A stretch of 64,000 nt of DNA, from the IMG/VR virus record IMGVR_UViG_3300031088_000645; one strand, written 5' to 3'. Positions within the stretch are counted from its first letter, which is position 1, and every line of letters begins with the position of its first letter. Origin of the DNA: an uncultured virus (IMG/VR IMGVR_UViG_3300031088_000645). Taxonomy: Duplodnaviria; Heunggongvirae; Uroviricota; Caudoviricetes. Positions 3,340 to 62,992 of the stretch are shown here, piece by piece. Under the pieces are notes generated by a model. It was given only the letters and a program-made list of their open reading frames with translations. It did no database searches and had not been told where the DNA came from. A program made the position numbers and the translations under genes.

Positions 3340-3408
3340 ACATAACCGATACTAGCAAATAATTCAATAGTTGTCAATCTGCACCATACCGCGTGTCATC
3401 ATGTAGAT

Positions 3409-4455: not shown

Positions 4456-4499
4456 TGCCGTATAATCGATACCTTCACCTCTTCTAGGAGTATCCTCGC

Positions 4500-4778: not shown

Positions 4779-4804
4779 CGCTTAGCGTGTTCCCTGCTAG
4801 GTGA

Positions 4805-5278: not shown

Positions 5279-5433
5279 TATCTGCTCCTGACGGCGGTCG
5301 CCGCGTGTTCTGGGTTCTCAGGGTAACACCTTGATGGCGGCTGGTGGGTGGGTCTGCGTAGTTGTCATTGAAAACGTTGTGTGATAGGGTAAGAAGATTC
5401 CTTTTGTCCGTCCATCGTATCGAGAGATAGAGT

Positions 5434-5964: not shown

Positions 5965-5973
5965 GTAGGGGTT

Positions 5974-22485: not shown

Positions 22486-22532
22486 GTCGTGAAGCAATGT
22501 ACTACGCGCGGTAAGCGTTCTGGCACAAATAC

Positions 22533-24640: not shown

Positions 24641-24822
24641 CTAGTTGTATCTTCGTAGCGCTTGTTGTATGCTCTCGGTAGTGGCTGCAACACCAGCCCG
24701 CCTCAAGATGGTAACTCCTACGCAGTAACTGTCGCTGAGAGCAAGGTTCCGAGAGCCGTGTCACTTCAACTTCCATTAGATTATGGCGGTTGGGCGTAGG
24801 ACTACCGCCAGAGAGAAATCTA

Positions 24823-34439: not shown

Positions 34440-36053
34440 ATGATGACAAAGCTCATTGATGTTAGCACTGAAGACGTTTTCAATCTCTTTGAGACAACGA
34501 TGTCTACGAGGGTCGGCAACTTCTTGCATGATGATGGTTTGTGGGCTGATTCCCCCTTCGACAAGTACATGGTTGAGCATCGAATCACCACGGAGTTCAA
34601 ACTCATTCCTGAGGATGAGCAGCCCGCTCACATCTATATCGATGATGATGATTGCGTCTTGCAGCGCCCTTATGATCCGGACGCTCTGGGTCTGCCCAAA
34701 AATCTAGTTGGTGGTCATCTCAAAGGCGTGATGTATGACCTTCATAGCCGCCCAATCGTCGCAGACAGCCAGTGGCAGAACCTCGATGATAAGTTCTTGG
34801 GTGAGCTACGGAAGCTACACCCGTTTGCCGAGCGCATCTTTATCATCGATGAGGTGCATGTTGAGAAGAACTTTGAGAAAGCTTTGGACATCGCAGTTCT
34901 GCTCTACCCAATTCTCTACACCTTCCCCAAGTTTGTCGCCTGCGTTGTCAACTCTATCTACGTACCGGATCTCACGGACGGTTCGTACACCACGCACGAG
35001 AACTTCTTCATCATCGACAACATATACGACGAGGGCGGTGTCTTTCTTCCGGCAGCCAAAAAGGGTGAACCTTCGGAATCGACGGTGTTCGGTATTGGTA
35101 GTGACATCCCCATCAGTCAGAAGCTGACAGCAAGACCCTCGCTGCTTCTGGATGAAGCATTTAGCGAGAACGACACCAAGATCGGTCGCGACAAGTTCTG
35201 GAAGATGGGATTCAATGCACCAAGGTTTGCAGAGATAGCAGAGTTTGCTTCATCAAGCGAGGCATCTGAGAAGTATGACGCAGCAACAATTCGAGAGATC
35301 ATGTCGTCCGATTTGATCGCTGCTATTCGTGACAATGACACAACCCCTGCGCCTCCTAGCCTTCGTTCATCTACGAACTTCAATGAGTGCATCTTCACAG
35401 CCGAAGACATTTTCGACATCTCTTGCCATGACTTTGGTGATTTCTACGTTGACACTGATGTGTCTGGTGGGCACGGACTGAGGCTGGAAATTGTCAGCGA
35501 CGACAAGCCCTCTTGTTCTGAAATCGACATGTTTGGACTAAGCGTCGAAGGTGGTTTTTCGTTCCTCACCAAGGACACGAGTAGCTATTGCACCACGATG
35601 GAGGTGGCTCATGCGATTGGGATTGAGAAATTTTCAGCCGGTCCCCGTGGCGGTTATGGTTGGGCGCTTGGAATCAATGGTAGCAAGATGCCTGTCGCCA
35701 TCGAGAAGGTCCGTAGCTTCTGTGCGCCTAACGAGGCACTTGTGTGGCTGCTGCTCATGTCATGGGTTGATCATCGGCGTGACGACAGCGCTAGCGACTA
35801 TTTCTCGGTAGACAAGGCGCTGCTGGGCTTCAATAGCGCCAAGTCACTCTCATACAGCATGAATGCCGGTCGTGTTCTTGAATTCCTTCGGGCGGGAGCG
35901 CACGACATTAATGAGGTCATCGAACTGGTAGACAATAGTGCGGATACCGAAGAGGCTCTCACCATGCTCGGTCGCGGTATGACCATTCGACAAATCATCA
36001 ACGCCATTCACAATGGTATCGATGCCGATCTGATGGGTCAGCTTACAGCCTGA
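34440..36053 (+). CDS. Hypothetical protein with C-terminal region shared with 32846
   Basis: 537-aa ORF; FLRAG...NGIDADLMGQL. Confidence 0.65.
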   Translation: MMTKLIDVSTEDVFNLFETTMSTRVGNFLHDDGLWADSPFDKYMVEHRITTEFKLIPEDEQPAHIYIDDDDCVLQRPYDPDALGLPKNLVGGHLKGVMYDLHSRPIVADSQWQNLDDKFLGELRKLHPFAERIFIIDEVHVEKNFEKALDIAVLLYPILYTFPKFVACVVNSIYVPDLTDGSYTTHENFFIIDNIYDEGGVFLPAAKKGEPSESTVFGIGSDIPISQKLTARPSLLLDEAFSENDTKIGRDKFWKMGFNAPRFAEIAEFASSSEASEKYDAATIREIMSSDLIAAIRDNDTTPAPPSLRSSTNFNECIFTAEDIFDISCHDFGDFYVDTDVSGGHGLRLEIVSDDKPSCSEIDMFGLSVEGGFSFLTKDTSSYCTTMEVAHAIGIEKFSAGPRGGYGWALGINGSKMPVAIEKVRSFCAPNEALVWLLLMSWVDHRRDDSASDYFSVDKALLGFNSAKSLSYSMNAGRVLEFLRAGAHDINEVIELVDNSADTEEALTMLGRGMTIRQIINAIHNGIDADLMGQLTA

Positions 36054-36773
36054 TTACTGGTCGAGAAGTCGTAGTAACCGTCTTAGTGGTCGTGCTGAGG
36101 TGTGACGGTCCTCAGGGTGCCACTGAACGCCGTATAGGCGGTTGTAATCGTCTTCGATAGCCTCGACTACCTCCCCGCTTGTTCCGACGACAGAGAAGCG
36201 CTGAGGGATGTCTTTGATCGACTGATGGTGATTGCAGTGAACTCGAATGCGGCTCTTTCCGAGAGCGTCTCTGATCCGTGATGGCTCTAAGTCGATGACG
36301 GTCTTAGCCATGTGGTTCTCTTCGAACATCTTAGGGTTGACGTGGGTGTTGTCTTCGCCTAGGTCTTGAACGATTCCACCGCCTGCCACAACGTTCAATA
36401 GCTGCATCCCTCGACAGATACCGAGGATGGGAATTCCGGCATCGACAGCAACACGGATAGCATCAATCTGAATCTGATCGGCGCTGGCGAATACCTGTGC
36501 ACGGCGACGGTATTCCTCTTCACCGTTATAGAAGCTCGGGTCGATATCTTCACCTCCACCAATGACCAATGCATCAGCGTGCTCGATGACGGCAAGTACC
36601 TCTTGCGGGTCTCGTTCAAGCACAGGAATGAGAAGCACCTCGAAGTCTTTGCGCGCGACCTTTTCAAGGTTCAGGTAGTTGTGGTGAGAGAAGTTATGCG
36701 CAGCCGTGTTCATGCGCTTCTCGACATCACTCGTCACTTCGAGGATGGCTAAGCGCTTACGGATTCTGGACAT
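36054..36773 (-). CDS. Peptidase C26 / gamma-glutamyl-gamma-aminobutyrate hydrolase family glutamine amidotransferase
   Basis: GGGEDIDPSFY, PILGICRGMQLLNV, HHQSI, GVQWHPE. Confidence 0.9.
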   Translation of the reverse strand: MSRIRKRLAILEVTSDVEKRMNTAAHNFSHHNYLNLEKVARKDFEVLLIPVLERDPQEVLAVIEHADALVIGGGEDIDPSFYNGEEEYRRRAQVFASADQIQIDAIRVAVDAGIPILGICRGMQLLNVVAGGGIVQDLGEDNTHVNPKMFEENHMAKTVIDLEPSRIRDALGKSRIRVHCNHHQSIKDIPQRFSVVGTSGEVVEAIEDDYNRLYGVQWHPEDRHTSARPLRRLLRLLDQ

Positions 36774-42262: not shown

Positions 42263-43555
42263 TTGTCTGTACCGTCACAATTCAACGCACCACTATCTGA
42301 GGTAGATCCGGAAGTTGCTGCTATTCTCAATGCTGAGCTAGGTCGCCAGCGAGACACTCTGGAAATGATTGCTAGCGAGAACTTCGTCTCTCGTGCAGTC
42401 CTTGAATCACAGGGTTCCGTCCTCACCAACAAGTACGCCGAGGGTTACCCAGGCAAGAGGTACTACGGTGGATGCGAGTTCGTCGATGAGGTGGAGACGC
42501 TCGCGCTCGATAGAGCCAAGAGCTTGTTCGCCGCAGCCTACGCCAACGTACAGCCACACTCAGGTGCATCCGCTAATGCTGCCGTGCTTGCTGCCATCGC
42601 TTCTCCAGGAGACAAGATTCTCGGACTCGAACTGGCTCATGGTGGTCACCTCACCCACGGCATGAAGCTGAACTTCTCAGGTAAGGTCTACGAGCCTCAT
42701 GCCTACGGTGTCAACCCAGAGACCAACCTCGTAGACATGAACATCGTCCGAGACCGGGCATTGGAAGTTCGCCCCAAGGTCATCATTGCAGGTTGGTCAG
42801 CCTATTCACGTCAGATTGACTTCGAAGCGTTCCGTGCTATTGCTGATGAGGTCGGAGCGGCGCTGTGGGTCGATATGGCGCACTTTGCTGGTCTAGTGGC
42901 TACCGGTCTTCACCCGTCGCCTATTCCGTTCGCAGATGTCGTTTCATCAACCGTCCACAAGACGCTGGCGGGTCCACGTTCGGGAATCATCTTGTCGCGT
43001 GACGAAGCACTCGGCAAGAAGCTCAACTCGGCGGTGTTCCCAGGTCAGCAGGGTGGTCCGCTTATGCACGTCATCGCTGCTAAGGCAACAGCATTCAAGT
43101 TGGCTGCTTCAGAAGAGTTCAAGGATCGTCAGGAAAGGACACTCAGCGGCGCGAGGATCGTTTCTGAGCGCCTTACTGCCGCAGATAGTACGAGTGCCGG
43201 TATCAACGTTCTCACGGGCGGCACAGACGTTCATCTCGTTCTAGCTGACCTGAGAGAGGCTGTTATCGATGGTAAGCAGGCGGAGGATGCTCTGCATGAA
43301 GTGGGTATCACCGTGAACCGCAACTCGGTTCCTAACGACCCACGTCCGCCATTGAAGACCTCTGGTATTCGTATCGGAACACCGGCTCTTGCTACACGAG
43401 GATTCGGTGACGATGAGTTCCGCGAGGTTGCGGACATCCTAGCTCTCACTCTGATTGGTGAGACTCCTGTTCGCGAGCTAGCTGATCGGGTCAATGCACT
43501 CACGGCTAGGTTCCCTCTCTACGAAGGTCTTACCTCGCCAGGCACCTGGAGCTAA
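42263..43555 (+). CDS. glyA: Serine hydroxymethyltransferase
   Basis: [56 protein letters not shown]. Confidence 0.97.
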
Positions 43556-49870: not shown

Positions 49871-50350
49871 TCACCGCTGGGATGCTGCTAGTCCCACTAC
49901 CCCACCCACTCCGTAGAGGTTGGGTAAGTCGTCTGGCACACCAGGGAATAGAGGACCGTAATACTCGGGGTTCTTCCTGATGAGGTTGCTCTGGTGCGAA
50001 CGATGGAATTCAGGGTCACCTAGCCACAGCGGTTCAGTGTTGGCTAGCGCTAGCTCTTCGGTTGATGCACCATCGAAGAACTCATCCACGAATGCTTGGG
50101 TCTTACCTAGCACCGTATCCTTGTAGCCTCGTACATCGATCCACTCATGGAGAATAGCCTCCTGATACCTCATGAGTGCTAGTTCATGCCCCTTCCATTG
50201 GAGGGTTGCCGAGTGGTGTGAGTAGCCTTCGTGGTTGGTGGTGAGAGCACGCATGATTACCATTGTTTCGTTTCGCTGATTACCAAGATGAGGGCGGCTG
50301 AGAGCAGCAGCGGATTCCGCAAAGTTGGGGAATGGAAGGAACGTCTGCAT
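49871..50350 (-). CDS. MSMEG_6728-like / pyrimidine-dimer glycosylase superfamily protein
   Basis: MQTFLPFPNF...LGNQRNET...WKGHELAL...PLWLGDPEFHRSHQSNLIRKNPEYY. Confidence 0.8.
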   Translation of the reverse strand: MQTFLPFPNFAESAAALSRPHLGNQRNETMVIMRALTTNHEGYSHHSATLQWKGHELALMRYQEAILHEWIDVRGYKDTVLGKTQAFVDEFFDGASTEELALANTEPLWLGDPEFHRSHQSNLIRKNPEYYGPLFPGVPDDLPNLYGVGGVVGLAASQR

Positions 50351-50483
50351 AGCTATCTCCTGAGGTAGGTAGATAGTGTAGCTACTGTGTTTGGGTGGTC
50401 AAGCAGGTTATGCACTATGCGCACGGAACACACAGAAACGCCCTCCAAGTGATGACCTGGAGGGCGTTTCTGGGTAGCTAAGG

Positions 50484-51224
50484 CTAGATGGACGATCCTC
50501 TGTTAGGGGCTGGGAAGGCTCTCCTAATAACGTCAGGGAGGAAGCCCGATGTGACATCTCTGATGAAGTTCACGGCTTCCTGGGTGTTAGCGTGGTGCGG
50601 ATCATCGTAGAGTCCCATCATGTCTTCGGTGCTGTACTCGATAGGTCTATCGACGACATCGTGGGGTTGAGACTTAGTAGGTACCATGATGGAGAATTCA
50701 TTACCGTCTTCGTTCTCCGGGAGAACTACGCCGTCGTACTTTCCGCGAACAAATCCTTCAAGTACAGCGCGTCTTTCCATCTTGGACTCAGCGAAGTTTT
50801 CATCGATGTTGCCAGCAAGGCTATCGAAGTCCACCTTGTAACCGGCGTAGACTTTGAAGACACCTTCGGTATCTCGCTCAGCGAGCTTGAAGTCAGGGGC
50901 GTGGCGAGGATATGAGAAGTTATCCTTGTTGACATCGAAGCGTACCGAATCACCCTTATCGAGAGACACATAAGCTTCAGTGACATTATTGACGTGGCGA
51001 TTGAGGTAGGGGTACTTTTGCTGAACAATCTCGGCAGTGCCTTCGAGTGTGTAACTGGTGCCGTCCCCAAAGGTTCCGGTCGAGTCATCCTGAATGGGTG
51101 CAGACGCGGCACTGATGGCGACACTACCTGCTCTGGCAGCAGAGCGCCCGTCATCGACTCTCTTATGGACAGTAGTCTGTTTGCCGTTCTTATCAACGAT
51201 GGGCGTAGGGGTTAGGTTACTCAT
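50484..51224 (-). CDS. DKNGK-leader protein, unknown cargo
   Basis: PTPIVDKNGKQTTVHKR; TACAAT-N6-ATG. Confidence 0.7.
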   Translation of the reverse strand: MSNLTPTPIVDKNGKQTTVHKRVDDGRSAARAGSVAISAASAPIQDDSTGTFGDGTSYTLEGTAEIVQQKYPYLNRHVNNVTEAYVSLDKGDSVRFDVNKDNFSYPRHAPDFKLAERDTEGVFKVYAGYKVDFDSLAGNIDENFAESKMERRAVLEGFVRGKYDGVVLPENEDGNEFSIMVPTKSQPHDVVDRPIEYSTEDMMGLYDDPHHANTQEAVNFIRDVTSGFLPDVIRRAFPAPNRGSSI

Positions 51225-51274
51225 GGGTCTATTGTAGTGTGCGGTAGTGACATGGTTCGGCTATTATTGTATCG

Positions 51275-51730
51275 ACTTGACTCCCGCACACGCGGGACCG
51301 TTCCGGGCGCTCTGAAGTAGGTAGTGTTGTAGATGGTTTGACTCCCGCATACGCGGGACCGTTGGTTCTGTTGAATCGAGTATTTCACCAGTTTCGGTTT
51401 GACTCCCGCATACGCGGGACCGTTTTGCACTCCGGACAGAACGGATACTTGGTGAAGGTTTGACTCCCGCATACGCGGGATCGTTACCACACGCCGCCAG
51501 ATTGCCTCGTTCACGTGGGTTTGACTCCCGCATACGCGGGATCGCTCGGTTGATTTACTGAGGCTGCATCACGAGGTTGGTTTGACTCCCGCATACGCGA
51601 GACCGTTACTAACCTTGCTTTCGGGCTTCTTGAAACGCTGGGTTTGACTCCCGCATACGCGGGACCGTTACTCGGCTGGCTAGTGCCTTCGCCCTCTCCG
51701 AGGTTTGACTCCCGCATACGCGAGGTCATA
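51275..51730 (-). CRISPR. CRISPR array 2: 8 repeats (several degenerate), 7 spacers
   Basis: Reverse-complement repeat gtttgactcccgcatacgcgggaccgtt at 51275, 51336, 51397, 51458, 51519, 51580, 51642, 51703. Confidence 0.93.
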
Positions 51731-54700
51731 ACCATAAACCATACTTCCCTTCGAAGTCAACAAGCCCTAACCCTTCTTCGTCGCCATAGACAGCGATTGG
51801 ACTCAACGAAGACACATCAATACAAGTGACGTGTTCAGGAACACCTTCCACTTCAACGATCAATCCATCTAGATCTTTGCTGAGCGAGCCAAGGAATTGC
51901 TGGCTAGCAGAAACCATTTTGGAGGCGACAAGTCTCTTGCTTTGGACATCGATATGGGTAGGCACTACCACCCTCTTATCCTCATCAATGAACCTTTCCC
52001 CATGAGCGTCCTGCCATGTCGGTAAGATGCTCACGCTTTCGCTAAAAAGCCGTGTAGGGGCTGCAAGATACGACCGTGATGTGTAGCCTGAAGTAACCCC
52101 ATCAAGCATAAAGCTTCGACTGTTGGGTGGCATGGAGATAGACGAATTTTCACCCTGGTAAGATTCGTTATTCTCGGCAGCGATGAACTCTCTATAACTG
52201 ACATTTAGTCGCTCATCTGCTCTTTCGTTTCTAGCGTCTTCGGAAACCAGGAAGTGATCTAGAAATAGCCGGGAGGTCTCAGCCTTAGGGTTCCACCATG
52301 AAGGCTGCTCGCTGATTTCTTGGGTCTGTAGCACTACTAGCGTCGAGCGCAATTCCCACTCTGAATAAGGGATGACCGAGTTACCAAACCCTTCGGTATC
52401 TGTGTCCTCATGAATCATGCCTGGGTGAACAATAATGTGAACACGAGGGCGCTTGTCATATGCAACCGCTCGTCTACTGCCTTGATTATGACGATAGACT
52501 CTACCCACCCGCTGTAGCAGCGCAGGAAGAGGCGCTAGCGGGCTAATTAGGACATCAAAATCGATATCCATACTCTGCTGAACGATCTGTGTGGAAACAA
52601 CCACCAGGGGCTTTCTGTCATCCGTTCCGCCCTTACTAGTTCTGCTCACAATTTCAGCAACGAGTTCTTGTTTGCGTTCCATTGCCATACGTGAATGTAG
52701 TAGCACAACATCGGAATCCAGATTGAGAGCCTTCAACTCCCGATAGGTGGCGGTAGCCTGATTGATTGTGTGACACACAACGAGCGTGCTTGCGCCGTTC
52801 TCATCATGTTCTTTCACTAGTGGGATGACTGCATCGAGGAAGCCAGATGACACAGACAGGCTTGTCTCGTACGGCTGGTAATCCTCTTTGGGTAGTGCAT
52901 CTTCGTAGTGAGTAGTAACTCCATCGGAAGAGGCAAAGATCCATCCGGGAGAAGAGATTCCTTCTGAGGGGATAGCGTCGATCAGTGATGCGGGCTTGAT
53001 CTGATTGCCGTCTGGGTAGTAAGCCTCAATGAGCTTCTTCTGAGATGCTCCTGAGAGCGTAGCGCTCATCGCGATAACAGGTATGCCATAGGTACCACAC
53101 CAGGAAACAAAGCGCTTGATTAGCTCGAATGTGTAGGGCGAGAAATCGTGAATCTCATCTATGACCACGGTCTTTCCGCTAAGTGTTAGCCAGCGAAGAG
53201 TGTTGTGTTTGAGCTTGGTTGCGCTGTTGATTAGTTGATCAATGGTGGATACCGAGATTGAACTCATACCACCCAGCTTCTTCTCCACCAAGAAGCTGCT
53301 GATGAACGAACCCGACTGCTTGTCTTTCTTGTCTTCGGCATCATCGTCGAACATCGAGATGTTGTCACTGATGGACTCGGTGACGGCGTTGACCCCGATA
53401 CCGTCGATGGCGTTTGAGAAGGCAGCATTGGCGTGCATAAGGGAAACGCTGTATTGACTACCCTCTTCGAAGACACGCCTTCCGACATCTTTTGCGCGGC
53501 TGAACATAAGGTCGGTTGTGCTCTGCGTGGGCAGCGTGATCCAGAAGCCTGACCCGCCTGCACGGCGGCTAATGGTTGATGCCGCGTAAAGTGATGCTTC
53601 GGTCTTGCCCGAACCCATTGGCGCAGAAATGAAAGTGATTCCCTGACCATCATGGCTATCGAAATACTCAGCTAGTGAGGACTGCAAAGGGTTCGGCGGG
53701 AAGTCAGAGAATACACTTTGGATGGTGAACGATTCATCCCATGTAGCCTTTGCTAGCCCATAGTGCTCGACAAAGGATTCAGCCTTGGATTTGGCTGCTA
53801 TGAAGTGAGAATCGTAGTTGTTGTTGTTAACGGGCATTGCGAGGATGAAGTCTTCGCTTGACGCTATCCAATCCGCCAAAGTGACAATCCCCGAGATAAG
53901 CAGTTGCGCTGTCTGCTGTACAGCGGTAATGACGGACAGTTCTTCTACCGCAACACCAAGCACGCGGAGTATCATCGTCTCGATGCTGCGCTGGTCATCA
54001 ACCCACGGCATGTATTTTCTTTCGTATCCTTCTGGTACGTCTTTCTTGACCGCAAAGGTTCCGTGGTGGCTTCTGGTGATGTGCCCGAGTGCATCGAGAA
54101 GCTTCCGATTTACCTCGCCAGTAAGTATTGAACCTCCATGTATGAAGTACGCCCTACCGTTCTCTTCATGCTTGCGGTAATCGTCGCTCGCTTCTTCGGG
54201 AAGACTTCTACCAGACAACGATGGGTGACCAGTCTTCATCTTTATAGTTCCACGCAACCAGTCGGGAGTAGCCTTTCCAATATCGTGCAGCCCAGCACAC
54301 ACGAGTATGAGATTTCGAACAAGCTCGGGCTTATCCTCGACACCTGCTGAGATCAAACGGCACAGCGAAACCTTCTGCTGATCGGTGATTACTTCATCCC
54401 ACAGAACTGCTGCAACGGCGGCAGTGTCAACTAGGTGTAGCGCTACTGGGTAATCGAACGGCAGTGTCTTTCCTAGTAGGAGTTCCCACCGCTCAGGCTC
54501 AATAGATCTCCTGACGCTTACTGTCAACCCATCGATGTCTGTAATGTACGACGATGCTTTGTCGGATTCAGATACCAGGAATCCTTGCTCGTTCTGAGAT
54601 GTGGGAATAATCAGTGTCACTTTGTGTTCTGGGAAGTCATTGACTAGCTCTTCCCACAACTTCTCTCTTACGCGAGTACTGAGACGACCTACAAACGTCA

Positions 54701-54800
54701 AAGGTGCAACCTCAACAAGGTAGGCAGTAAGCACCCTCCGTAGCGCAGGGGACATGTTTGCGCACACGAATGTGCATGTCTGCGAACTCACTCTTGCCAT
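51726..54800 (-). CDS. cas3: Cas2(I-E)-Cas3 fusion protein
   Basis: aa ~7-98 resemble type I-E Cas2 (PALRRVLTAYLVEVAPLTFVGRLSTRVREKLW...NEQGF...DIDGL); HD domain (LHDIGKA, HHG, LADWIAS); SF2 helicase (APMGSGKTE, DEIH, MSATL, QRVGRVYRH). Confidence 0.9.
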   Translation of the reverse strand: MARVSSQTCTFVCANMSPALRRVLTAYLVEVAPLTFVGRLSTRVREKLWEELVNDFPEHKVTLIIPTSQNEQGFLVSESDKASSYITDIDGLTVSVRRSIEPERWELLLGKTLPFDYPVALHLVDTAAVAAVLWDEVITDQQKVSLCRLISAGVEDKPELVRNLILVCAGLHDIGKATPDWLRGTIKMKTGHPSLSGRSLPEEASDDYRKHEENGRAYFIHGGSILTGEVNRKLLDALGHITRSHHGTFAVKKDVPEGYERKYMPWVDDQRSIETMILRVLGVAVEELSVITAVQQTAQLLISGIVTLADWIASSEDFILAMPVNNNNYDSHFIAAKSKAESFVEHYGLAKATWDESFTIQSVFSDFPPNPLQSSLAEYFDSHDGQGITFISAPMGSGKTEASLYAASTISRRAGGSGFWITLPTQSTTDLMFSRAKDVGRRVFEEGSQYSVSLMHANAAFSNAIDGIGVNAVTESISDNISMFDDDAEDKKDKQSGSFISSFLVEKKLGGMSSISVSTIDQLINSATKLKHNTLRWLTLSGKTVVIDEIHDFSPYTFELIKRFVSWCGTYGIPVIAMSATLSGASQKKLIEAYYPDGNQIKPASLIDAIPSEGISSPGWIFASSDGVTTHYEDALPKEDYQPYETSLSVSSGFLDAVIPLVKEHDENGASTLVVCHTINQATATYRELKALNLDSDVVLLHSRMAMERKQELVAEIVSRTSKGGTDDRKPLVVVSTQIVQQSMDIDFDVLISPLAPLPALLQRVGRVYRHNQGSRRAVAYDKRPRVHIIVHPGMIHEDTDTEGFGNSVIPYSEWELRSTLVVLQTQEISEQPSWWNPKAETSRLFLDHFLVSEDARNERADERLNVSYREFIAAENNESYQGENSSISMPPNSRSFMLDGVTSGYTSRSYLAAPTRLFSESVSILPTWQDAHGERFIDEDKRVVVPTHIDVQSKRLVASKMVSASQQFLGSLSKDLDGLIVEVEGVPEHVTCIDVSSLSPIAVYGDEEGLGLVDFEGKYGLWL

Positions 54801-55720
54801 AGGTTGTTTCCTCCGGAATCAACTTGCTCTGAACCGTTCCACAGGAGCGATGGGGAATCTTCCTCTGTGCCAGTCTCGGTAGCTGTGTCGTCGAATGAAA
54901 GTACGTGGTAGATGTCATCGACTATGCGAGGCATCATCCTAACGCCAGTGAGCTTCTCACGCAACCTAGCCCTCATCTCATTAGGTAATACGCCCTGAGA
55001 GGCTAAGTCAAATGCAAGCGGTATGATCACTTCCTCCTTGTACAGGTCGGCTATATCGAACACGAACGCATTGGCGTTACCATGATGAATTACTCCCAAG
55101 CCAGTAGAAAGTCCAATACTGGTAATGACTGCTGCGCAGAGTCCATACATGACGGCGTTTCCGGATGTCAGCATCTGGTTTACAAGGTCGTTGGAATCAA
55201 AATCAACTTGCTGCACTCTTCGCTCAAAGGAAACACCTGTTCTCTTTGATTCTTGGCGATAAAGTGCTTTGACACGACTACCTTCCAGTCGCATCATCTC
55301 TGAAATGGAGAGGTTTTCGGGTATCTCTTCGTTCCATCTAAGTTCGTACATAAGCCGAGCGGACTGTCGTCGTTTTCTTTGACTGGATACTATTTCTGCT
55401 TGCTTACTTAGGAGTCTAGAGTTCCTCGAAGAGGTTGAGAGAAAGGATGAGTGGACACCTAACCCGCCGCCATTGACGAATGACACATTGCATCCCCATC
55501 GGGATATCTCAAGGGCTGCTGGTTGGGAAATAGTGGTTCCAATACCAAGAAGCAAGGCTGAGAGATTTGCGGCGGGTAAGTCAAAATCCATGCCTGATTT
55601 TCTGAAGATGATGGAGTTCTCTTCCCGCAAGACAGCGCCGTATTCAAGATAGAGGAAGCTGACTCTGTTCTTTGTTGAGGTGATTATCTCGAAAGGTGGC
55701 TTGCCGTGTAATAGACTCAT
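54788..55720 (-). CDS. cas1: Type I-E Cas1
   Basis: RVSFLYLE, LLLGIGTTIS, EGSRVK..Y, GLGVIH, FVFDIADLYK. Confidence 0.93.
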   Translation of the reverse strand: MSLLHGKPPFEIITSTKNRVSFLYLEYGAVLREENSIIFRKSGMDFDLPAANLSALLLGIGTTISQPAALEISRWGCNVSFVNGGGLGVHSSFLSTSSRNSRLLSKQAEIVSSQRKRRQSARLMYELRWNEEIPENLSISEMMRLEGSRVKALYRQESKRTGVSFERRVQQVDFDSNDLVNQMLTSGNAVMYGLCAAVITSIGLSTGLGVIHHGNANAFVFDIADLYKEEVIIPLAFDLASQGVLPNEMRARLREKLTGVRMMPRIVDDIYHVLSFDDTATETGTEEDSPSLLWNGSEQVDSGGNNLWQE

Positions 55721-55797
55721 CAAGCAATTCTACTGGAGGGGTAGTTAAACCTTGTAAGTTTTGGTGTCAATCTTAGGAAAAATGCTGTTCAGCTCCT

Positions 55798-58082
55798 AAC
55801 GGTCCCGCGTATGCGGGAGTCAAACTGTAACCTACTAGCTGTCCGATGACTGGTAGCAAACGGTCCCGCGTATGCGGGAGTCAAACTTCGTCGGTGTTCT
55901 TACCGTTGCTATGCTCGATAACGGTCCCGCGTATGCGGGAGTCAAACCTCAGTGGGGATTCTACAATAGATACATCAAGCAACGGTCCCGCGTATGCGGG
56001 AGTCAAACCACCGCTCACACGCCCTTAACATGGTCGGGGTAAACGGTCCCGCGTATGCGGGAGTCAAACTAGCACCCGTGAGGTGGAATACTACTGACTC
56101 CTAACGGTCCCGCGTATGCGGGAGTCAAACCATGCGCTTTGTCGAGACTGCCCCGAAGACCTAAACGGTCCCGCGTATGCGGGAGTCAAACCGAACTGGT
56201 CGGTAAGACTGACGGTCTAATCGAAACGGTCCCGCGTATGCGGGAGTCAAACCTAAATCTATACCTATGGATGCGCGAAACAAGAAACGGTCCCGCGTAT
56301 GCGGGAGTCAAACCAGTGCTCATGGTGTCGTTGTCTGCCGTAGCAAAACGGTCCCGCGTATGCGGGAGTCAAACCGTTAGGACCAAGGCTGATGAGCAGG
56401 TCGATAAAACGGTCCCGCGTATGCGGGAGTCAAACCCATGAGTAACAAAACAATCACCGTGGCAGCTAAACGGTCCCGAGTATGCGGGAGTCAAACCTCG
56501 CGATCCTTGCAGAATGCAGTAGGCTCAGCAACGGTCCCGCGTATGCGGGAGTCAAACCCAGTTTGCTGCAAGACCATTAGCTTCTAGAAGAACGGTCCCG
56601 CGTATGCGGGAGTCAAACCTTAGATGATGCTACTAAGCATGAACAGTTCCTAACGGTCCCGCGTATGCGGGAGTCAAACCCGATGTGATGGAGCGTGGGA
56701 TGGACACCGCTGAACGGTCCCCCGTATGCGGGAGTCAAACCTTTTCTCAATGAAGATTGATTTCACCGACTTCAACGGTCCCGCGTATGCGGGAGTCAAA
56801 CCGGTGGTCAGTGGAGTAACTCTGCGGGTGCGGGAACGGTCCCGCGTATGCGGGAGTCAAACTATCATTAGACAGAACCGGCTGAGATAGCCATTAACGG
56901 TCCCGCGTATGCGGGAGTCAAACCGTGGGTAAGCTCTGGTGTGCGGTCGATAGCGAAACGGTCCCGCGTATGCGGGAGTCAAACTGTACTACCTCCATGC
57001 ACACAGCGAAGCCTTCTAACGGTCCCGCGTATGCGGGAGTCAAACCGGAGTAACATCACAAGGACTAAAATCGGATGCAACGGTCCCGCGTATGCGGGAG
57101 TCAAACCAAAGTAGCATCCTGTCTGCGAAGTTGGTGAAGAACGGTCCCGCGTATGCGGGAGTCAAACTTGTCAATCTCCTTTTGAAGCTTTTCAGCATTG
57201 AACGGTCCCGCGTATGCGGGAGTCAAACCCTCTATGGTGGATTTGGAGACTGGTGAAATCAAACGGTCCCGCGTATGCGGGAGTCAAACCAAGATGACTT
57301 ACGTCTGCGTCCCTTCCAACCAAACGGTCCCGCGTATGCGGGAGTCAAACCAAAACTGAGGTTGCTCTTAAGGGGTGGGCTAAAACGGTCCCGCGTATGC
57401 GGGAGTCAAACCGGTCATACATTTCAATTAGGGCTGTTATTCCCCACTGTCCCGCGTATGCGGGAGTCAAACCCTCTGTGTACTTTCAGTAGCCAGTGCT
57501 CTGTAAACGGTCCCGCGTATGCGGGAGTCAAACTTCGCCAGCCCAGTGAAGGGTTAGCCTGCTGCCAACGGTCCCGCGTATGCGGGAGTCAAACCTACAA
57601 TAGTGATATTGCCACGGAGCTTGATGTAACGGTCCCGCGTATGCGGGAGTCAAACCCTCATTACAAACTCCTATTACAAAGGAGCCAAAACGGTCCCGCG
57701 TATGCGGGAGTCAAACCTGGATGCAGCAGTTCGTTGGTACCGACAAGATAACGGTCCCGCGTATGCGGGAGTCAAACCACATCAAGCTCTACGATTCGAC
57801 GGTTCATCAGAACGGTCCCGCGTATGCGGGAGTCAAACTGTCATCTGGTTCCACCTGTACTCGCTCATCCAAACGGTCCAGCGTATGCGGGAGTCAAACC
57901 GCCGTGGCTACCTCTCGAATCCTGGGGCACGCAACGGTCCCGCGTATGCGGGAGTTGAACTAACGCTCAATTATTTTCTGTTACTCTAAGCAGAATGGTC
58001 CTGCGTGTGCGGGAGTCAAACCATCGCCACCAAAGAGGGTTTCGGTTTCGTAACAACGGTCCCGCGTATGCGGGAGTCAAAC
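55798..58082 (+). CRISPR. CRISPR array 1: 38 repeats, 37 spacers
   Basis: Repeat AACGGTCCCGCGTATGCGGGAGTCAAAC (28 nt, always followed by C or T) at an exact 61-nt period from 55798 to 58055; hairpin TCCCGC-GTAT-GCGGGA. Confidence 0.98.
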
Positions 58083-58206
58083 CTGAGCAAAAGATCCGTA
58101 ATCCTCTGAGAACCAGACTATTTCAAATATAGTAATCCACTCCTTGCGGGCAAACCAATTTGTACGGTTTTTTGCTTTTTAGGCATTTCGCCCCTATACT
58201 CGAAAC

Positions 58207-59952
58207 ATGAGCCTAGCCTTCAGCCCCGCCTTGCGCCATGAAGTAAAGCCTAATTTTGCACTGCATGATCCTCAGATTGGCTGGATTTCAGCTAGCTATC
58301 TGGATGGCACTAGTCGACTGGTAGACCTAAGTACAGTCCTCAAAGAGGCTCATCTAATCAAGCGGGTATCCCTCCGCAATTCCGTTTCCAGTATTTCTCT
58401 ATATCGACTGCTTCTTTCCATTTCCTATGCAGATTTCAAATACAGCAACCCGGATGAATGGCTAGATGACCGAGTAGACAAGGTTGAGCAGAACCTCGGG
58501 TTCAACCCGCAGTTCGTTGACAGCTACTTCGCAAAGCATCATGATCGCTTCTATCTCATCCACCCAGATTTCCCTTTCCTACAGGACGCTTCTGTTTACA
58601 CACAGTACAATGCTAAGGCGTACAACGAGCATGCTGCACAGCCGGACGTTGTAGGCAAGGATCTTGATAATCGTCGTAAGGTCTGGAGTGGCGCTCTATC
58701 GCCCATCTCGGGTATCTATCCCAACGCTATCAACATTACCAAAGAAGGTAACCCCCGCGAAGTGTGGGGTCTTCCGGTTGATGATATCTACGACACAGCG
58801 TCTTCCGAGAGCGATCAAATCTCGATACTCATGACCGCTCTGCTTCACCAGAGGTATTCTCATGCTTCCATCAATAGGGGCGCGCGACCTTTGATTGGGT
58901 TATCTGGTCTTTCTGACACCCATCTTGCTGCACACGCATTTAGGTGTGCAACTGGATACGTTATCGAGACGGGTTCGCTTTACCAAACGCTTCTCACCTC
59001 GATGGAATACTTCTCTCCTGAAGAACTTGACGGTGACATCCCAGAGTGGGAGCGAGAGGTTGATGAGACTACTGGCACTCTTGCTCTCAAGGGGTACAAC
59101 ATTGAGTACACCGATATTGTCAAGTTCATCTCTTCAAGCAAGACTGGTCCTCGCAGTAGCGTCAATATGACCCAGATGGCTGTTCTCCTGGTGCCTGACG
59201 TGAGTAATGACCTCTCTCAGATCAAGCAAATTCGTCGCCCCGCATTCAACTTCAAGCACCACCTAGCACCCGGCTCGACGAAAGATAAGCTTCCCTTCCC
59301 GATTACTTGGAACCCTTTCGTGGCGATCAAAGATGACGGTAGAGCGCTCAAATTGGTGACTGAAGTTTCGGAAGCTACGTCGATGGGTTCTTCAAGTATC
59401 TTCAAGGTGCCATTCCTGAATAACGAAGCAATCACCAAGCCGTACTCAGTGACTTCGGTACAGCGTGATGATGACCTGCGAAATGTTCTTCCTGCAAGCA
59501 AGCGAACTCTTAGGGTATTCGTGTTCGCGGCGGATGCCACGAAGGAAAAGGACTATGCCGACTTCATTTTGGTTCGCCCCGACACCTCAGCGCTAATTCG
59601 CACATCTCAGGATGAGCAACGAATTGCCAACTGGATGGAGTTTGGTGGATACATCAGAGCGCTTGTTAACGGTAATATCTCATCGTTGGCGAAGCGTGAT
59701 GGCACAAGCATCGATGTAGCCGGTGCCAACTATCTCTTCTGGCAGCGTTACCAGTCTCTTTTCTTTGGGTTGAACGCATCTTCTATCGAACCTGTGTCAG
59801 GTCATCTCAAAGAGATTGTGGCGTTAGCTCTTGAGGTCTTCGACAACTACACCAGCAGTTACTTTGTCAGCCGCCCATTGGTTACCTCTGGAAAGCGCGG
59901 GTTGATTCAAGGCTCCATCTACAAGAAGGGCAAGACCTATGGCACCGACTGA
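58207..59952 (+). CDS. cas8e: Type I-E Cascade large subunit Cas8e/Cse1
   Basis: WIS...EAHLIK...LYRLLLSI...DRFYLIHPDFPFLQ; first gene of the operon. Confidence 0.8.
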   Translation: MSLAFSPALRHEVKPNFALHDPQIGWISASYLDGTSRLVDLSTVLKEAHLIKRVSLRNSVSSISLYRLLLSISYADFKYSNPDEWLDDRVDKVEQNLGFNPQFVDSYFAKHHDRFYLIHPDFPFLQDASVYTQYNAKAYNEHAAQPDVVGKDLDNRRKVWSGALSPISGIYPNAINITKEGNPREVWGLPVDDIYDTASSESDQISILMTALLHQRYSHASINRGARPLIGLSGLSDTHLAAHAFRCATGYVIETGSLYQTLLTSMEYFSPEELDGDIPEWEREVDETTGTLALKGYNIEYTDIVKFISSSKTGPRSSVNMTQMAVLLVPDVSNDLSQIKQIRRPAFNFKHHLAPGSTKDKLPFPITWNPFVAIKDDGRALKLVTEVSEATSMGSSSIFKVPFLNNEAITKPYSVTSVQRDDDLRNVLPASKRTLRVFVFAADATKEKDYADFILVRPDTSALIRTSQDEQRIANWMEFGGYIRALVNGNISSLAKRDGTSIDVAGANYLFWQRYQSLFFGLNASSIEPVSGHLKEIVALALEVFDNYTSSYFVSRPLVTSGKRGLIQGSIYKKGKTYGTD

Positions 59953-60460
59953 TGCCTACCGAAGACTAGCTGAGCACATCCTCAATGCCGGTCGATACGA
60001 CTTCATTCGATGGAGCCGCGCTGTCGAGGCATCTCTGGATGGCGAGGCTAAGGCACTACTCAACCGCTTTGGTATTTCTAGCTACCAGAGTAAGCCATTG
60101 GCTAACCTTCTCTCCTGCCTGCATTTTGTCAACAAGCAGTCTGTTCTCTTCCTACCGGAAGAAGGGAAGGGTAGCTACTACGGTGCCAATATCGGGGTAA
60201 TACTCAATAGCCGAGTAAGCGGACTCAGTGACGAAGAAGTCAAGGCACAGAGTTTCATCAAGGTGTGGATGAGCAACAACGCAGAGCAGTTTGCGTCTTC
60301 ATCACTACCCAAGCTGCTTCGCTATAACGGCAGTCGTAGCAACCCCGTCCGCATCCCGCTTGACGCATTGTTGCGCGTCATCCTCAGGTGGGATGAACAC
60401 AAGACCGAAATCATCACCGCGCTCTCTCAAGAGTACTTTACGAAAGGTAACACCAAATGA
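59939..60460 (+). CDS. cse2: Probable Cas11/Cse2 small subunit (divergent)
   Basis: Size and position between cas8e and cas7; helical, ...ILRWD...SQEYF end. Confidence 0.6.
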   Translation: MAPTDAYRRLAEHILNAGRYDFIRWSRAVEASLDGEAKALLNRFGISSYQSKPLANLLSCLHFVNKQSVLFLPEEGKGSYYGANIGVILNSRVSGLSDEEVKAQSFIKVWMSNNAEQFASSSLPKLLRYNGSRSNPVRIPLDALLRVILRWDEHKTEIITALSQEYFTKGNTK

Positions 60461-61650
60461 GTAGCTATATCGATATCGAAATTCTGCACACCCTCCCCTT
60501 CTCCAACTCCAACCGAGATGATGCTGGACTACCCAAGACTGTCACGGTAGGCGGATCTACCCGAGGTAGACTTTCCAGCCAGTCCATCAAGCGAGCGTCT
60601 CGCTACTACGGACTCGACCGCGCTGAGGGCTATGGTCTTTCAGAGAACGGTGGTGCTGGGTACTTCCGTACCAAGTACATTGCCAACGCTGTAGAGGACC
60701 GCATCAAGGAGCTAGATGGCGGCTCTGAGGCTGTAGAGCGCGTCCGCACTCAGCTTTACGGTGACACCGCATTTGGTAAGCTCTCCAAGCCTGACAAGAC
60801 TGCTAAGGATCAGGTCGAGAAGGGTCTCGTACTATCTGTCGTCACAACTGGTGAGGTTGACACCCTGGCGCACAAGTTCATCGAGGGTGATGTAACCCCC
60901 GCAGAGATCCTTGACGTGTTGAAGTCTAGTGCCAAGAAGGATATCGCTCTTTGGGGTCGCTTCTTTGCTTCTGCCAACTCCGCTAGCCTTGATGGTTCGG
61001 CTCAGGTTGCTCACGCCATTACGACACACAGTGTCAACACCGAGGCGGATTTCTTCGTCGGTATGGATGATCTTGCTCCGGTCTACTCAGAGCACGGCGG
61101 CGGAGGTCACCCGGATGACAGTTTCTACCTGACGGGTACGTTCTACAAGTACGCCAACATCAATCTAGACGAGACCATCGCAAACCTCTTGAACCTAGAT
61201 TTTGACGGCAAGAAGGCTACCATCAAGGGTGACCGCGATACTGCTATCGCTGATGCTGCTGAGGTAATTGAGAAGTTCATTCGATCCTTTGCGCTGAGCG
61301 TGCCTCAGGGAAAGATTCGCTCATCTGCTCACCAGACTCTTCCCAGCTACATTCGTGTCTCGTTGAGGAATGATCGACCGGTCAATGCTTCGACCGCTTT
61401 CGACTCCGCCATTCCGCAGTCCGAGAAGAACATCGCGCAGGCTTCTCTAGACCGTCTTGCTACTACACACGCTAGCTTGAACGGACTCATCGGTGAGCCT
61501 GTAGTTGCATTCGTGTGGTCATCTGACGATGCTGCTGAGGTGCTAGGAGACAAGCGCGCTTCTCTCAACGAGTTGGTCTCTTCCATCATCGCTACCTCTG
61601 GTGACGTTGTAGAAAAGGCAGCGGATCGCTTCATCGGTCTAGCTGAGTAA
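60457..61650 (+). CDS. cas7: Type I-E Cas7/Cse4
   Basis: PFSNSNRDDAGLPKT..GG..R.RLSSQSIKRA, DIALWGR, QVAHAITTH, TFYKYA. Confidence 0.93.
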   Translation: MSSYIDIEILHTLPFSNSNRDDAGLPKTVTVGGSTRGRLSSQSIKRASRYYGLDRAEGYGLSENGGAGYFRTKYIANAVEDRIKELDGGSEAVERVRTQLYGDTAFGKLSKPDKTAKDQVEKGLVLSVVTTGEVDTLAHKFIEGDVTPAEILDVLKSSAKKDIALWGRFFASANSASLDGSAQVAHAITTHSVNTEADFFVGMDDLAPVYSEHGGGGHPDDSFYLTGTFYKYANINLDETIANLLNLDFDGKKATIKGDRDTAIADAAEVIEKFIRSFALSVPQGKIRSSAHQTLPSYIRVSLRNDRPVNASTAFDSAIPQSEKNIAQASLDRLATTHASLNGLIGEPVVAFVWSSDDAAEVLGDKRASLNELVSSIIATSGDVVEKAADRFIGLAE

Positions 61651-61653
61651 CCC

Positions 61654-62391
61654 GTGCTGTTTCTAGCTATGGTGTTTCATGCACCTTTGCAAAGCTGGGG
61701 TGCCGTAAACCTTCCTGAGTCCAATTCAGCTTCACCTCGCAAGACACATCTTTTCCCCACTAAGAGTGCAGTTATCGGTCTTCTTAGATCTGCTCTTGGT
61801 GTTGAAAGAGGATACGGTGACGAGCTAGATTTGGACAGCCTTCGTATCCTCTCTAGAGCAGACAGGGTAGGAAGAGTTCAGCGTGACTACCAGATCTCCC
61901 AGCGAACCCATCATGGTTTCAATGCAGGTACGACTAAGGAGATTCCGAAGATGTTCTTGGAAGAGTCTACCTTTGTGGTCTTGGTAGGTCACAAAGACAC
62001 CGCTGTGGTCGAGAAGCTTTCGAATGCCATCCAGAACCCAGAGTGGGCACCTTTCTTCGGTAGGCGCGCCCATGTGCCGTCATTGCCCATCTCATTGGGG
62101 ACGGCTACCAGTGAAGACCCCCGTGCGCTTCTTCAAGAGCTTCCTGTATTCTGGGGAGAAGAAGAACGTTGGTTGGCTGAAAAGACGGTACCGACTTACG
62201 ACTCAGTAGGACAAGGCAGTGACCGCCCCGAGGTGGTCATCGATCAGCCAGTTTCGTTCCACCCTAGGGACAGAAATTACACCGAGCGCACACACTATGT
62301 GTTCAACACAAAGGCTCAAAGAGAGCCGAAGAAGTTATCAATCGTAGAGCAGTACATCGAAATCAGGAAGGCGCTAATCAATGTTCATTAG
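61654..62391 (+). CDS. cas5: Type I-E Cas5
   Basis: APLQSWG, PTKSAVIGLL..ALG, RDYQ, FFGRR. Confidence 0.9.
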   Translation: MLFLAMVFHAPLQSWGAVNLPESNSASPRKTHLFPTKSAVIGLLRSALGVERGYGDELDLDSLRILSRADRVGRVQRDYQISQRTHHGFNAGTTKEIPKMFLEESTFVVLVGHKDTAVVEKLSNAIQNPEWAPFFGRRAHVPSLPISLGTATSEDPRALLQELPVFWGEEERWLAEKTVPTYDSVGQGSDRPEVVIDQPVSFHPRDRNYTERTHYVFNTKAQREPKKLSIVEQYIEIRKALINVH

Positions 62392-62992
62392 CCGTGTCAA
62401 TGTAGGTCCAGATGCTCCGCTCTTTACTCGTGGACGCAATGGTGTCCGTGAGCATCAATTTGTGATGTCTCTTTTCCCAGATGGTTTGGATGACAAATCA
62501 CCTCGCTCTGCCATCAATGCTCTCTGGCGGCTCGATGCGACCAAAATGGGCGAGCTAAAAGTCACCATCAAGTCGGATATCCTTCCTTCCCTCGACAACG
62601 TGAAATCGGACAGGATGCGTAATGCAGTGTCCCTGGAATCAAAGGAGTTCGATGGATTTGCAAGGGCTATTGCTCTTGGAGATGTCTCGTACTCAGTTCG
62701 TCTGAACAGTATCAAGCGCAGCGATAACGGCGAGCGCCCACTACGCAACCTGGATGAAATTGCCGCTTGGTGGAAAGACAAGGCTGCTGGCTGTGGGCTA
62801 TCTATTGATGAAAGCAAGCTTGATATCGCTGTTGAGAGCGCTCTGGAGAGAACTAAAGACTCCCTGCTTGCTAGCACCCAGATTTCAGGTAGAGGAACTG
62901 TGACAGATGCAGAGAAGCTTGATTCGGCAGTTCGAGATGGGGTCGGACGCGGCAAGAATTACGGATTTGGGTTGCTGCTGATTGGTGGGTAA
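62381..62992 (+). CDS. cas6e: Type I-E Cas6e/Cse3
   Basis: HQFVMSLFP, LWR, C-terminal GVGRGKNYGFGLL. Confidence 0.9.
   Translation: MFISRVNVGPDAPLFTRGRNGVREHQFVMSLFPDGLDDKSPRSAINALWRLDATKMGELKVTIKSDILPSLDNVKSDRMRNAVSLESKEFDGFARAIALGDVSYSVRLNSIKRSDNGERPLRNLDEIAAWWKDKAAGCGLSIDESKLDIAVESALERTKDSLLASTQISGRGTVTDAEKLDSAVRDGVGRGKNYGFGLLLIGG

Follow-up and report, generated by a model that had tools for sequence, protein, structure and literature searches.

A 64,000-nucleotide (nt) stretch of DNA from the IMG/VR record IMGVR_UViG_3300031088_000645, filed as an uncultured virus and called the window throughout, carries a type I-E CRISPR-Cas locus (short palindromic repeats that are clustered and regularly interspaced, with CRISPR-associated genes) in which cas2 forms the 5' part of cas3. 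We consider it likely that this is a complete, probably working locus of a divergent type I-E lineage, whose mechanism can be drawn by analogy to type I-F. Signs of activity are the 37 unique spacers of the larger of its two arrays, the variation of the last base of the repeat and a leader motif common to the window and a related metagenome locus. A preliminary description of the window had proposed the in-frame fusion and called it a possibly undescribed I-E variant; full-text literature searches returned no published description of a natural I-E Cas2-Cas3 fusion, and the fusion is a real, rare variant that is apparently new to the literature.

The fused gene, cas2-3, is a single open reading frame (ORF) of 1024 amino acids (aa) without internal stop codon. 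It is built as follows, SF2 denoting helicase superfamily 2:

51726..54800, minus strand: cas2-3, encoding a Cas2e domain, a linker, a Cas3 HD nuclease, an SF2 helicase and a C-terminal domain
54522..54770, minus strand: Cas2e domain (aa 11-93), delimited by Pfam, NCBIfam and the alignment to E. coli Cas2 (4mak)
54480..54521, minus strand: junction or linker (aa 94-107), R97 R98 followed by the Cas3 N-terminal motif LGK(T/S)xPxxYP, present in 14 of 14 aligned fused proteins
53847..54452, minus strand: HD nuclease domain of Cas3 (aa 117-318), with an intact set of metal-binding His/Asp motifs
52431..53663, minus strand: Cas3 SF2 helicase core (aa ~380-790), with Walker A GSGKTE, DEIH and motif VI QRVGRVYRH

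The N-terminus was recognised as Cas2e by Pfam PF09707 (aa 11-93, 53.5 bits, cut-off 24.7) and by NCBIfam TIGR01873 (aa 12-93, 37.5 bits, above the cut-off of 33.15), and E. coli Cas2 (PDB 4mak) aligned with aa 11-93 at an E-value of 4e-6. When aa 1-105 were compared with the PDB, all nine matches at E<=1 were I-E Cas2 proteins, including the I-E Cas2-DEDDh protein, and none was an I-F Cas2/3 chain. The remainder of the protein was covered by the Pfam families Cas3_HD (aa 117-318), DEAD and Cas3-like_C_2, reached 164 bits with the Cas3 core model TIGR01587 and aligned over aa 116-790 with the I-E Cas3 of T. fusca (PDB 4qqw, 230 bits). The I-F model Cas3f (TIGR02562) gave 41.1 bits against a cut-off of 565.95, and the I-F Cas2/3 chains in the PDB matched a helicase stretch only (aa 515-598, 27-28 bits), which argues that the fusion is not a transplanted I-F Cas2/3 protein. 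The catalytic residues are in place (H122, D125, H172-D173, H245-H246, D310; Walker A K399; D548-E549-x-H551; motif VI Q763-R770), and in the alignment of 14 fused homologues these HD, Walker A, DExH and motif VI positions show no variation or almost none. The Cas2 domain has Ala14 at the position of E. coli Cas2 Glu9, a residue whose role we take to be a guide to nuclease activity; the position is variable and no acidic residue is conserved there in the fused family, so that the domain looks like a scaffold rather than a nuclease. A Pfam scan of 84 of the 85 non-overlapping window ORFs of at least 70 aa, the remaining one sitting inside an array, found no second Cas2, in keeping with the earlier statement that the window has no separate cas2. 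At the junction, the pattern V-R-R is followed by W-E..L-G-K-T/S..P..Y-P, and R97 R98 and their spacing are invariant in the 14 aligned proteins. The linker had been put at roughly 10 aa; it is short, but rather about 10-15 aa, and it carries the invariant Arg-Arg pair. For the I-F Cas2/3 protein, a linker of about 10 aa is given in a passage of a structural paper (PMC12661925).

The other parts of the locus also look like I-E, as had been proposed. They are:

54788..55723, minus strand: cas1, Cas1e-like, 311 aa, with a TTG start, an ATG at 55720 and a 13-nt overlap with the start of cas2-3
55724..55797, plus strand: leader of array 1, 74 nt, bordering the divergent cas1 start and ending in GCTGTTCAGCTCCT (55784-55797)
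55798..58083, plus strand: CRISPR array 1, 38 repeats of 29 nt with a 61-nt period and 37 spacers of 32 nt
51274..51730, minus strand: CRISPR array 2, 8 repeats and 7 spacers, with the same repeat as array 1
58207..59952, plus strand: cas8e (cse1), 581 aa, PF09481 at 61.9 bits (cut-off 24.7), 38% identical to the gene in the related locus L081
59939..60460, plus strand: probable cas11 (cse2), 173 aa, assigned from its position and a 32%-identical homologue at the same place in L081 (L081:10013-10531)
60457..61650, plus strand: cas7e (cse4), 397 aa, TIGR01869 at 188 bits (cut-off 178.05) and PF09344 at 251.9 bits
61654..62391, plus strand: cas5e, 245 aa, TIGR01868 at 104.5 bits (cut-off 68.95)
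62381..62992, plus strand: cas6e (cse3), 203 aa, PF08798 at 90.8 bits (cut-off 25)

Cas1 scored 240.7 bits with the Cas1e model TIGR03638 (cut-off 215.6) and 114.9 bits with the Cas1f model TIGR03637, under the cut-off of 150, and in an alignment its catalytic Glu, His and Asp coincide with those of solved I-E Cas1 proteins. The Cascade operon (58207-62992, plus strand) lies beyond array 1 and is divergent from cas1. Four of its five ORFs matched I-E families and none matched an I-F family (Csy1/Cas8f, Csy2/Cas5f, Csy3/Cas7f or Cas6f); Cas7e, Cas5e with Cas6e, and Cas1e with Cas2e are all present by their family models. A stand-alone I-E cas3 is missing, cas3 being joined to cas2. The canonical I-E gene order is cas3-cas8e-cas11-cas7-cas5-cas6-cas1-cas2, and the window departs from it, with cas2-3 and cas1 on the minus strand and array 1 and Cascade on the plus strand.

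The repeat of array 1 is AACGGTCCCGCGTATGCGGGAGTCAAAC followed by a last base that is C in 29 of the 38 copies and T in the other nine, the preceding 28 bases being nearly fixed. After its 6-bp stem, TCCCGC/GCGGGA, come 8 nt, GTCAAAC and then C or T, and the array thus has the form expected of I-E, with a 29-nt repeat, a GC-rich hairpin, spacers of about 32 nt and an 8-nt handle; no Rfam family matched the repeats. All 37 spacers are exactly 32 nt long and unique, none being duplicated. In E. coli I-E the last repeat base is derived from the protospacer and comes in with the new spacer, and the C/T variation therefore fits I-E-style acquisition. Degenerate repeats at the leader-distal end fit a leader beside cas1. 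Array 2 was found as eight repeat matches on the minus strand with 0-3 mismatches (0 expected by chance). Its first repeat has a degenerate 5' end and overlaps the cas2-3 stop codon, its last repeat has a degenerate 3' end, and two small ORFs in the region are translated repeats. The cas1-cas2-3 pair had been described as transcribed away from the array and the Cascade operon. This holds for array 1 and Cascade, but array 2 lies on the same strand as the pair and begins inside the cas2-3 stop codon, so that cas1-cas2-3 is not simply transcribed away from the arrays. At 51700-51730, the cas2-3 end of array 2, a contig of sequencing run X3 has a different spacer next to the proximal repeat, and runs X2 and X4 have the window's spacers with 0-2 changes, which indicates that spacer content at this end differs between related strains. 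Directly after array 2, on the same strand, stands an ORF of 246 aa (50484-51224, minus strand) that belongs to no family and is followed by a GC-rich hairpin at ~50440-50470.

Homologous fusions were sought by comparing aa 1-105 of the fusion with 1.8 billion cluster representatives (E<=0.001). The search returned 200 proteins; among the 150 matches listed, 15 (including the window's own protein) are 900-1074 aa long and match at their N-terminus, two are spurious giants and the remainder are at most 502 aa long. The giants (P0122 and P0135, with 2750 and 3496 aa), in which aa 38-95 matched in 9-20 stretches, were rejected as cadherin-repeat proteins, repeat-driven false positives of a single-sequence search. 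The 14 long fused proteins align end to end with the window's protein at 30-40% identity and have the same domain order and junction. With the fusion and its junction kept across at least 14 sequence clusters at this level of identity, the comparison argues that the fusion is old and under selection.

Two Cas3 trees were built after removal of the Cas2 part, one from 17 fused and 39 unfused proteins of at least 800 aa (P0005-P0019, P0022-P0047) and one, rooted on I-F, from 17 fused, 22 unfused, four proteobacterial I-E and two I-F proteins. The main fused clade of 14 proteins received 100% support in the Shimodaira-Hasegawa-like approximate likelihood ratio test (SH-aLRT) in both. Nested in this clade is P0005 (980 aa), which has no Cas2 match and starts just where the Cas2 domain ends, either through a mis-called start or through a real split. 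A second group of Cas2e-Cas3 proteins (P0244, P0268 and P0020/P0021; 882-911 aa) has the domain order PF09707, Cas3_HD and helicase according to Pfam. P0020 and P0021 are ~25% identical to the window's fusion, and the group sits elsewhere in the Cas3 tree, together with the unfused P0019 (98-99% SH-aLRT, on long branches). Two other Cas3 homologues of 1223 aa, P0008 and P0010, carry extra domains of helix-turn-helix type (PF08279, PF09339 and PF25583 in a precomputed Pfam list) and represent another kind of Cas3 fusion.

Among the fused clusters that were looked up, 18 of 19 consist of metagenome assemblies only. The remaining one, P0244, includes the NCBI protein MBQ8626148.1 from a metagenome-assembled genome (MAG) of Agathobacter sp., which is named 'CRISPR-associated helicase Cas3''; the architecture is thus already present, unremarked, in public protein sets. 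Genomes of GTDB were searched as samples of the groups concerned. In a pattern scan of GTDB species genomes the best 80 of at least 600 stretches were ordinary Cas3 proteins with 25-30% identity, none starting before aa 66. Among 401 genomes sampled from the order of G001, 66 had a Cas3 match, none starting before aa 97, and 301 genomes sampled from the family with the best match to the window's serine hydroxymethyltransferase (SHMT) gave a single Cas3 match, which was unfused. None of 401 genomes sampled from the family of L007 matched P0244 at 1e-90. IMG/VR contained no match with the whole fusion or with an N-terminal alignment. In the GenBank phage collection all seven matching records were confined to the Cas3 part, with no match starting ahead of aa 299, and the plasmid collection gave 126 records with the N-terminal 135 aa; among the matches listed all were stand-alone cas2e, and none covered at least 80% of the query. 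A word-based search with aa 1-110 returned the query itself only.

One of the fused relatives, P0129, is encoded in a metagenome locus (L081) that allowed comparison of the complete systems. In L081, a 24-repeat array pointing away from cas1 is followed by cas1, cas2-3, cas8e, cas11, cas7, cas5 and cas6 on one strand and then by a second array; the genes from cas1 to cas6 form one operon between the two arrays. In I-F loci, cas1-cas2/3 is likewise followed by the Cascade genes, with flanking arrays, and the plasmids L091 and L092 show the order cas1f-cas3f-csy1. In L081, genes for I-E proteins thus appear in the order that is usual for I-F, and its arrays are laid out as in I-F too. A further plasmid locus, L093 (Pseudomonas paraeruginosa, 435-6174), has cas1f after genes for a RAMP (repeat-associated mysterious protein) protein, Cas6f, a DNA helicase and a hypothetical protein, without cas3f, and resembles a type IV-like, helicase-associated locus that has acquired its adaptation gene from the I-F family. 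Identity between the window and L081 is 59% for Cas1, 49% for Cas7, 45% for Cas5, 39% for Cas2-3, 38% for Cas8e, 32% for Cas11 and 28.5% for Cas6, and Cascade is found beyond array 1 in the window but directly after cas2-3 in L081. Although these proteins are just 28-59% identical, the leader-end motif CTG[G/T]TCAGCTC[C/T]T stands directly before the first repeat of window array 1 and of both L081 arrays (~4160-4175, minus strand, and 13093-13107, plus strand).

Several observations weigh against a complete and working locus. The Cas3 part reached 217.5 bits with PRK09694, for which the cut-off is 569. For Cas8e, PF09481 covers aa 26-282 only and TIGR02547 gave 30.5 bits against a cut-off of 70.05; Cas6e scored 39.3 bits with TIGR01907, under the cut-off of 45.2, and the cas11 candidate matched no Pfam or NCBIfam Cse2 family. 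The leader motif was not found before array 2, which for this reason may be a leaderless remnant of a rearrangement. The spacers of array 1 gave no self-match in the window, one 16-nt chance match in the comparison loci and no phage match at E<0.05, and a promoter and terminator scan was at chance level (12 promoter-like sites versus 10.2 +/- 3.1 in shuffles). Among the listed contigs of the independent runs X2-X4 and X6, none bridges 54470-54530, the low or zero depth there meaning no finding. In run X4, an independent plant metagenome, one contig (depth 6.6) joins 54495 to 55589 through 164 other letters. In this form cas1 would be lost from about codon 46 onwards, and cas2-3 would lose precisely its Cas2 domain (aa 1-101); by arithmetic, what is left of the two genes would share one frame, provided that no stop occurs in the 164 letters. 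A relative may therefore lack most of cas1 and the Cas2 domain, and some strains may be able to dispense with the adaptation half or may be losing it. On the other side, and as a sign of selection, most of cas2-3 is matched at 90-99% identity by contigs from three other samples, the differences being substitutions and one 3-nt deletion, and no frame-breaking indel was found among the contigs listed from other samples. Two contigs of an RNA library cover 54614-54908, across the cas1/cas2-3 overlap; they are a weak hint of expression, since DNA carry-over is possible.

The preliminary description had taken the fusion for an independent, convergent event. That the fusion is natural, lies in an I-E locus and is not a transplanted I-F protein is borne out by the data above; the convergent origin is less clear. 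According to an alternative view, the fusion is homologous to that of I-F and the clade survives as an intermediate from close to where I-E and I-F split; fusion and cas1-cas2/3-Cascade order would then predate the remodelling of Cascade in I-F, and ordinary I-E would have re-separated the genes or branched off earlier. We regard this as unlikely, yet it deserves to be weighed in some detail. The Cas1 profile scores of the window and L081 are intermediate. With the Cas1e model, 16 ordinary I-E Cas1 proteins gave 320-381 bits, the window 240.7, L081 212.7 and true Cas1f 112-117; with the Cas1f model, the 16 ordinary proteins gave 48.5-100.9 bits, the window 114.9, L081 104.5 and true Cas1f of two plasmids 468-483. 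By these scores the locus groups with I-E and not with I-F, but as an outlying I-E. In Cas1 trees rooted on three I-F Cas1 proteins, the window and L081 branch first, outside all ordinary I-E; the 58 ordinary rows formed one group with 89% SH-aLRT, and in a more careful tree all 38 ordinary rows, four of them proteobacterial, did so with 82% bootstrap and 68% SH-aLRT. In the I-F-rooted Cas3 tree, a 98% split separates the 14 fused proteins, the unfused P0030 and P0047 and the I-F proteins from the other 27 rows. Two genes thus suggest a deep position of the fused clade next to I-F, and the gene order and flanking arrays of L081 are I-F-like as well. Long branches meet in these trees, however (I-F with the fused clade), and a tree in which the Cas1 proteins of the window and L081 nest with those of actinobacterial I-E was not rejected by the approximately unbiased (AU) test (p 0.196). 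P0030, from Cryobacterium sinapicolor, and P0047 form the sister of the main fused clade, which is equally basal and unfused; both this sister and the second fused group, placed elsewhere in the tree, argue that the fusion can arise independently, more than once. In addition, the PDB matches of the Cas2 domain are all to I-E Cas2, with no I-F Cas2/3 chain among them, and all Cascade subunits appear to be of I-E type. With modest support and possible long-branch attraction, the trees place the clade at the base of I-E beside I-F, and its origin may be convergent or ancestral. It is a doubtful idea that the fused clade is a living I-E/I-F intermediate, a deep I-E lineage with the adaptation design of I-F, flanking arrays included, and the Cascade of I-E, the fusion being older than I-F and I-F having arisen by Cascade remodelling. 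The basal position, if true, would bear on how I-F arose.

Under the preferred reading of a divergent I-E lineage, the proposed mechanism is drawn from the solved I-F Cas1-Cas2/3 complex and from the non-covalent Cas1-Cas2-Cas3-Cascade complex of primed acquisition in ordinary I-E. Two Cas2 domains would dimerise and bind two Cas1 dimers to form (Cas1)4(Cas2-3)2, with a Cas3 motor tethered on each side. Cascade with its CRISPR RNA (8-nt GUCAAAC[C/U] handle, 32-nt spacer) would find the target and recruit the Cas3 part; the integrase would then travel with the nuclease, and fragments of the target would enter array 1 directly, becoming new spacers at its leader end. Cas1 would probably also restrain the nuclease until recruitment. 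That the fusion couples priming to interference, as the preliminary description had it, is an inference only. As a second alternative, the fusion could be functionally neutral, the result of a lost stop codon between adjacent cas2 and cas3 genes that was kept at no cost or for 1:1 expression, without any special coupling and with adaptation and interference proceeding as they do in ordinary I-E. Ordinary I-E already couples Cas1-Cas2 to Cas3 non-covalently, according to passages of PMC12661925 and PMC7074321, and Cas fusions are frequent, as seen in Cas2-DEDDh (8fy9) and in the extra N-terminal domains on Cas3 in P0008 and P0010. What speaks for a function are the junction, with its R97 R98 pair and spacing unchanged in 14 clusters that are 30-40% identical to the window's protein, the fact that the cas1-cas2-3 order had to arise first, away from the canonical cas3 ... 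cas1-cas2, and the retention of such a fusion in at least two lineages. We therefore rate a neutral fusion as rather improbable, slightly more so than an origin shared with I-F. Finally, an assembly or sequencing error that joined cas2 and cas3, or a deletion that welded the remnants of two genes, is highly implausible and the fusion does not appear to be an artefact: although the window is a metagenome assembly and no listed independent contig bridges the junction, both domains are full length with intact motifs, the junction DNA contains no homopolymer run, and the same Cas2-to-Cas3 order and junction recur in 14 divergent proteins of other assemblies and in L081.

Compared with canonical I-E systems (E. 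coli K-12, T. fusca, Thermus thermophilus), the preferred reading of a divergent I-E lineage finds the same set of parts in the window, namely Cas1e, the Cas2e fold, an I-E-type Cas3, a putative Cse1/Cas8e, Cas7e, Cas5e and Cas6e, together with the 29-nt hairpin repeat, 32-nt spacers and the 8-nt 5' handle. The window differs in the fusion of cas2 to the N-terminus of cas3 and in a separate cas1-cas2-3 operon that is divergent from array 1 and Cascade (in L081 it lies upstream of Cascade). It differs further in that its Cas3, Cse1 and Cas6e remain under the NCBI curated cut-offs, Cas11 is unrecognisable by profile and, with the Cas1e model, its Cas1 falls 100-140 bits short of the 16 ordinary Cas1e proteins. 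With the I-F Cas1-Cas2/3 systems (Pseudomonas aeruginosa, Pectobacterium atrosepticum; PDB 5b7i, 8flj) the window shares the N-terminal Cas2, the short linker and the HD-helicase Cas3 encoded directly after cas1, and L081 in addition shares the succession of cas1, cas2-3 and large subunit down to cas6 with arrays on both sides. It differs from them in the Cas3f and Cas1f scores given above, in the restriction of I-F chain matches to aa 515-598, in a Cascade of putative Cas8e, probable Cas11, Cas7e, Cas5e and Cas6e instead of Csy1-3 and Cas6f, and in the I-E-shaped 29-nt repeat. A Cas2-DEDDh system of Streptococcus thermophilus was reportedly described by Drabavicius et al. in 2018. The I-E Cas2-DEDDh (DnaQ) fusion of PDB 8fy9 likewise joins an extra C-terminal enzyme to Cas2e in an I-E locus, and the window's Cas1 scored 161.6 bits against the Cas1 of that complex, as close as to any solved Cas1; there, however, Cas2e is joined to a prespacer-trimming 3'-5' exonuclease of ~200 aa rather than to the interference nuclease-helicase of 900 aa, and cas3 is separate. 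The second Cas2e-Cas3 group has the same domain order as the window's protein but differs in length and tree position.

As far as the available sections of the sources go, the fusion has been treated as a feature of I-F: a 2025 structural paper calls Cas2 'uniquely fused' to Cas3 in I-F (PMC12661925), a Cas3 review gives the fusion for Yersinia and Pseudomonas only (PMC7074321), and two further papers discuss it for I-F only (PMC3513311, PMC5965380). The 2025 classification (PMC12669027) includes I-E variants with HNH-Cas5, with PD-(D/E)xK-Cas11 and linked to transposons, and term searches of its main and supplementary text returned no I-E variant with Cas2-Cas3. Since Cas fusions are common and the cooperation of Cas1-2 with Cas3 in I-E is already known, the window's system, built from known parts on a principle known from I-F, is an instructive variant and not a new principle. 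In a field that treats the Cas2-Cas3 fusion as the hallmark of I-F, a conserved I-E family provides a natural replicate within the type I system that is understood best. With it one can ask if covalent linkage benefits primed adaptation or the control of the nuclease, with ordinary I-E Cascade, Cas3 and Cas1-Cas2 as direct comparators. A compact two-gene module for adaptation and nuclease activity with an I-E Cascade could also serve recording or long-range deletion tools.

The locus had also been proposed to lie on a mobile element, which the rest of the window did not support. About four fifths of its ORFs belong to no Pfam family. The recognisable genes outside the CRISPR-Cas locus, besides an HNH/zinc-finger protein, are:

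31-597: TerD (Pfam)
830-1966: TerC-like membrane protein, DUF475 (Pfam)
10595-11512, plus strand: ADP-ribosyltransferase-like ORF, weak (PF03496)
11509-12459, minus strand: ADP-ribosyltransferase-like ORF, weak (PF03496)
16887-17939: Ter-type ATP-grasp protein
21892-22497: thymidine kinase
24790-25539: DnaB_C-like ATPase
36054-36773: peptidase C26 class-I amidotransferase
42263-43555: SHMT
49871-50350: MSMEG_6728-family glycosylase

This mix of genes could suit a large phage. Nevertheless, no integrase, transposase, conjugation or phage structural family was found when 84 ORFs were compared with Pfam and 31 of them also with PHROGs, no tRNA was found in the window, and scans of IMG/VR and the GenBank phages returned no relative. 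A large ORFan (34440-36053) had no match in the phage collection, and an atlas search of one window ORFan was uninformative (scores of 0.75, TM <0.3). The TerC-like protein was tried as a pointer to the carrier and rejected; it is 43-51% identical to assorted phages and did not identify one. The SHMT is 77-81% identical to enzymes of Microbacteriaceae; contigs of up to 637 kb carry relatives with an identity of 90% or more, and a contig of 805 kb carries one that is 98% identical, while the fused homologue P0130 is found on a contig of 688 kb. GC content is even across the window (49-57%), and the stretch occurs in runs labelled as metagenomes of the phyllosphere, of plants and of leaf litter. 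The simplest reading, a tentative one, would be a variable chromosomal island of an uncultured plant-associated bacterium, perhaps an actinobacterium. The two ADP-ribosyltransferase-like ORFs are convergent and overlap each other (PF03496 at E-values of 1e-8 and 4e-6), and one of them resembles phage Alt-like enzymes in PHROGs.

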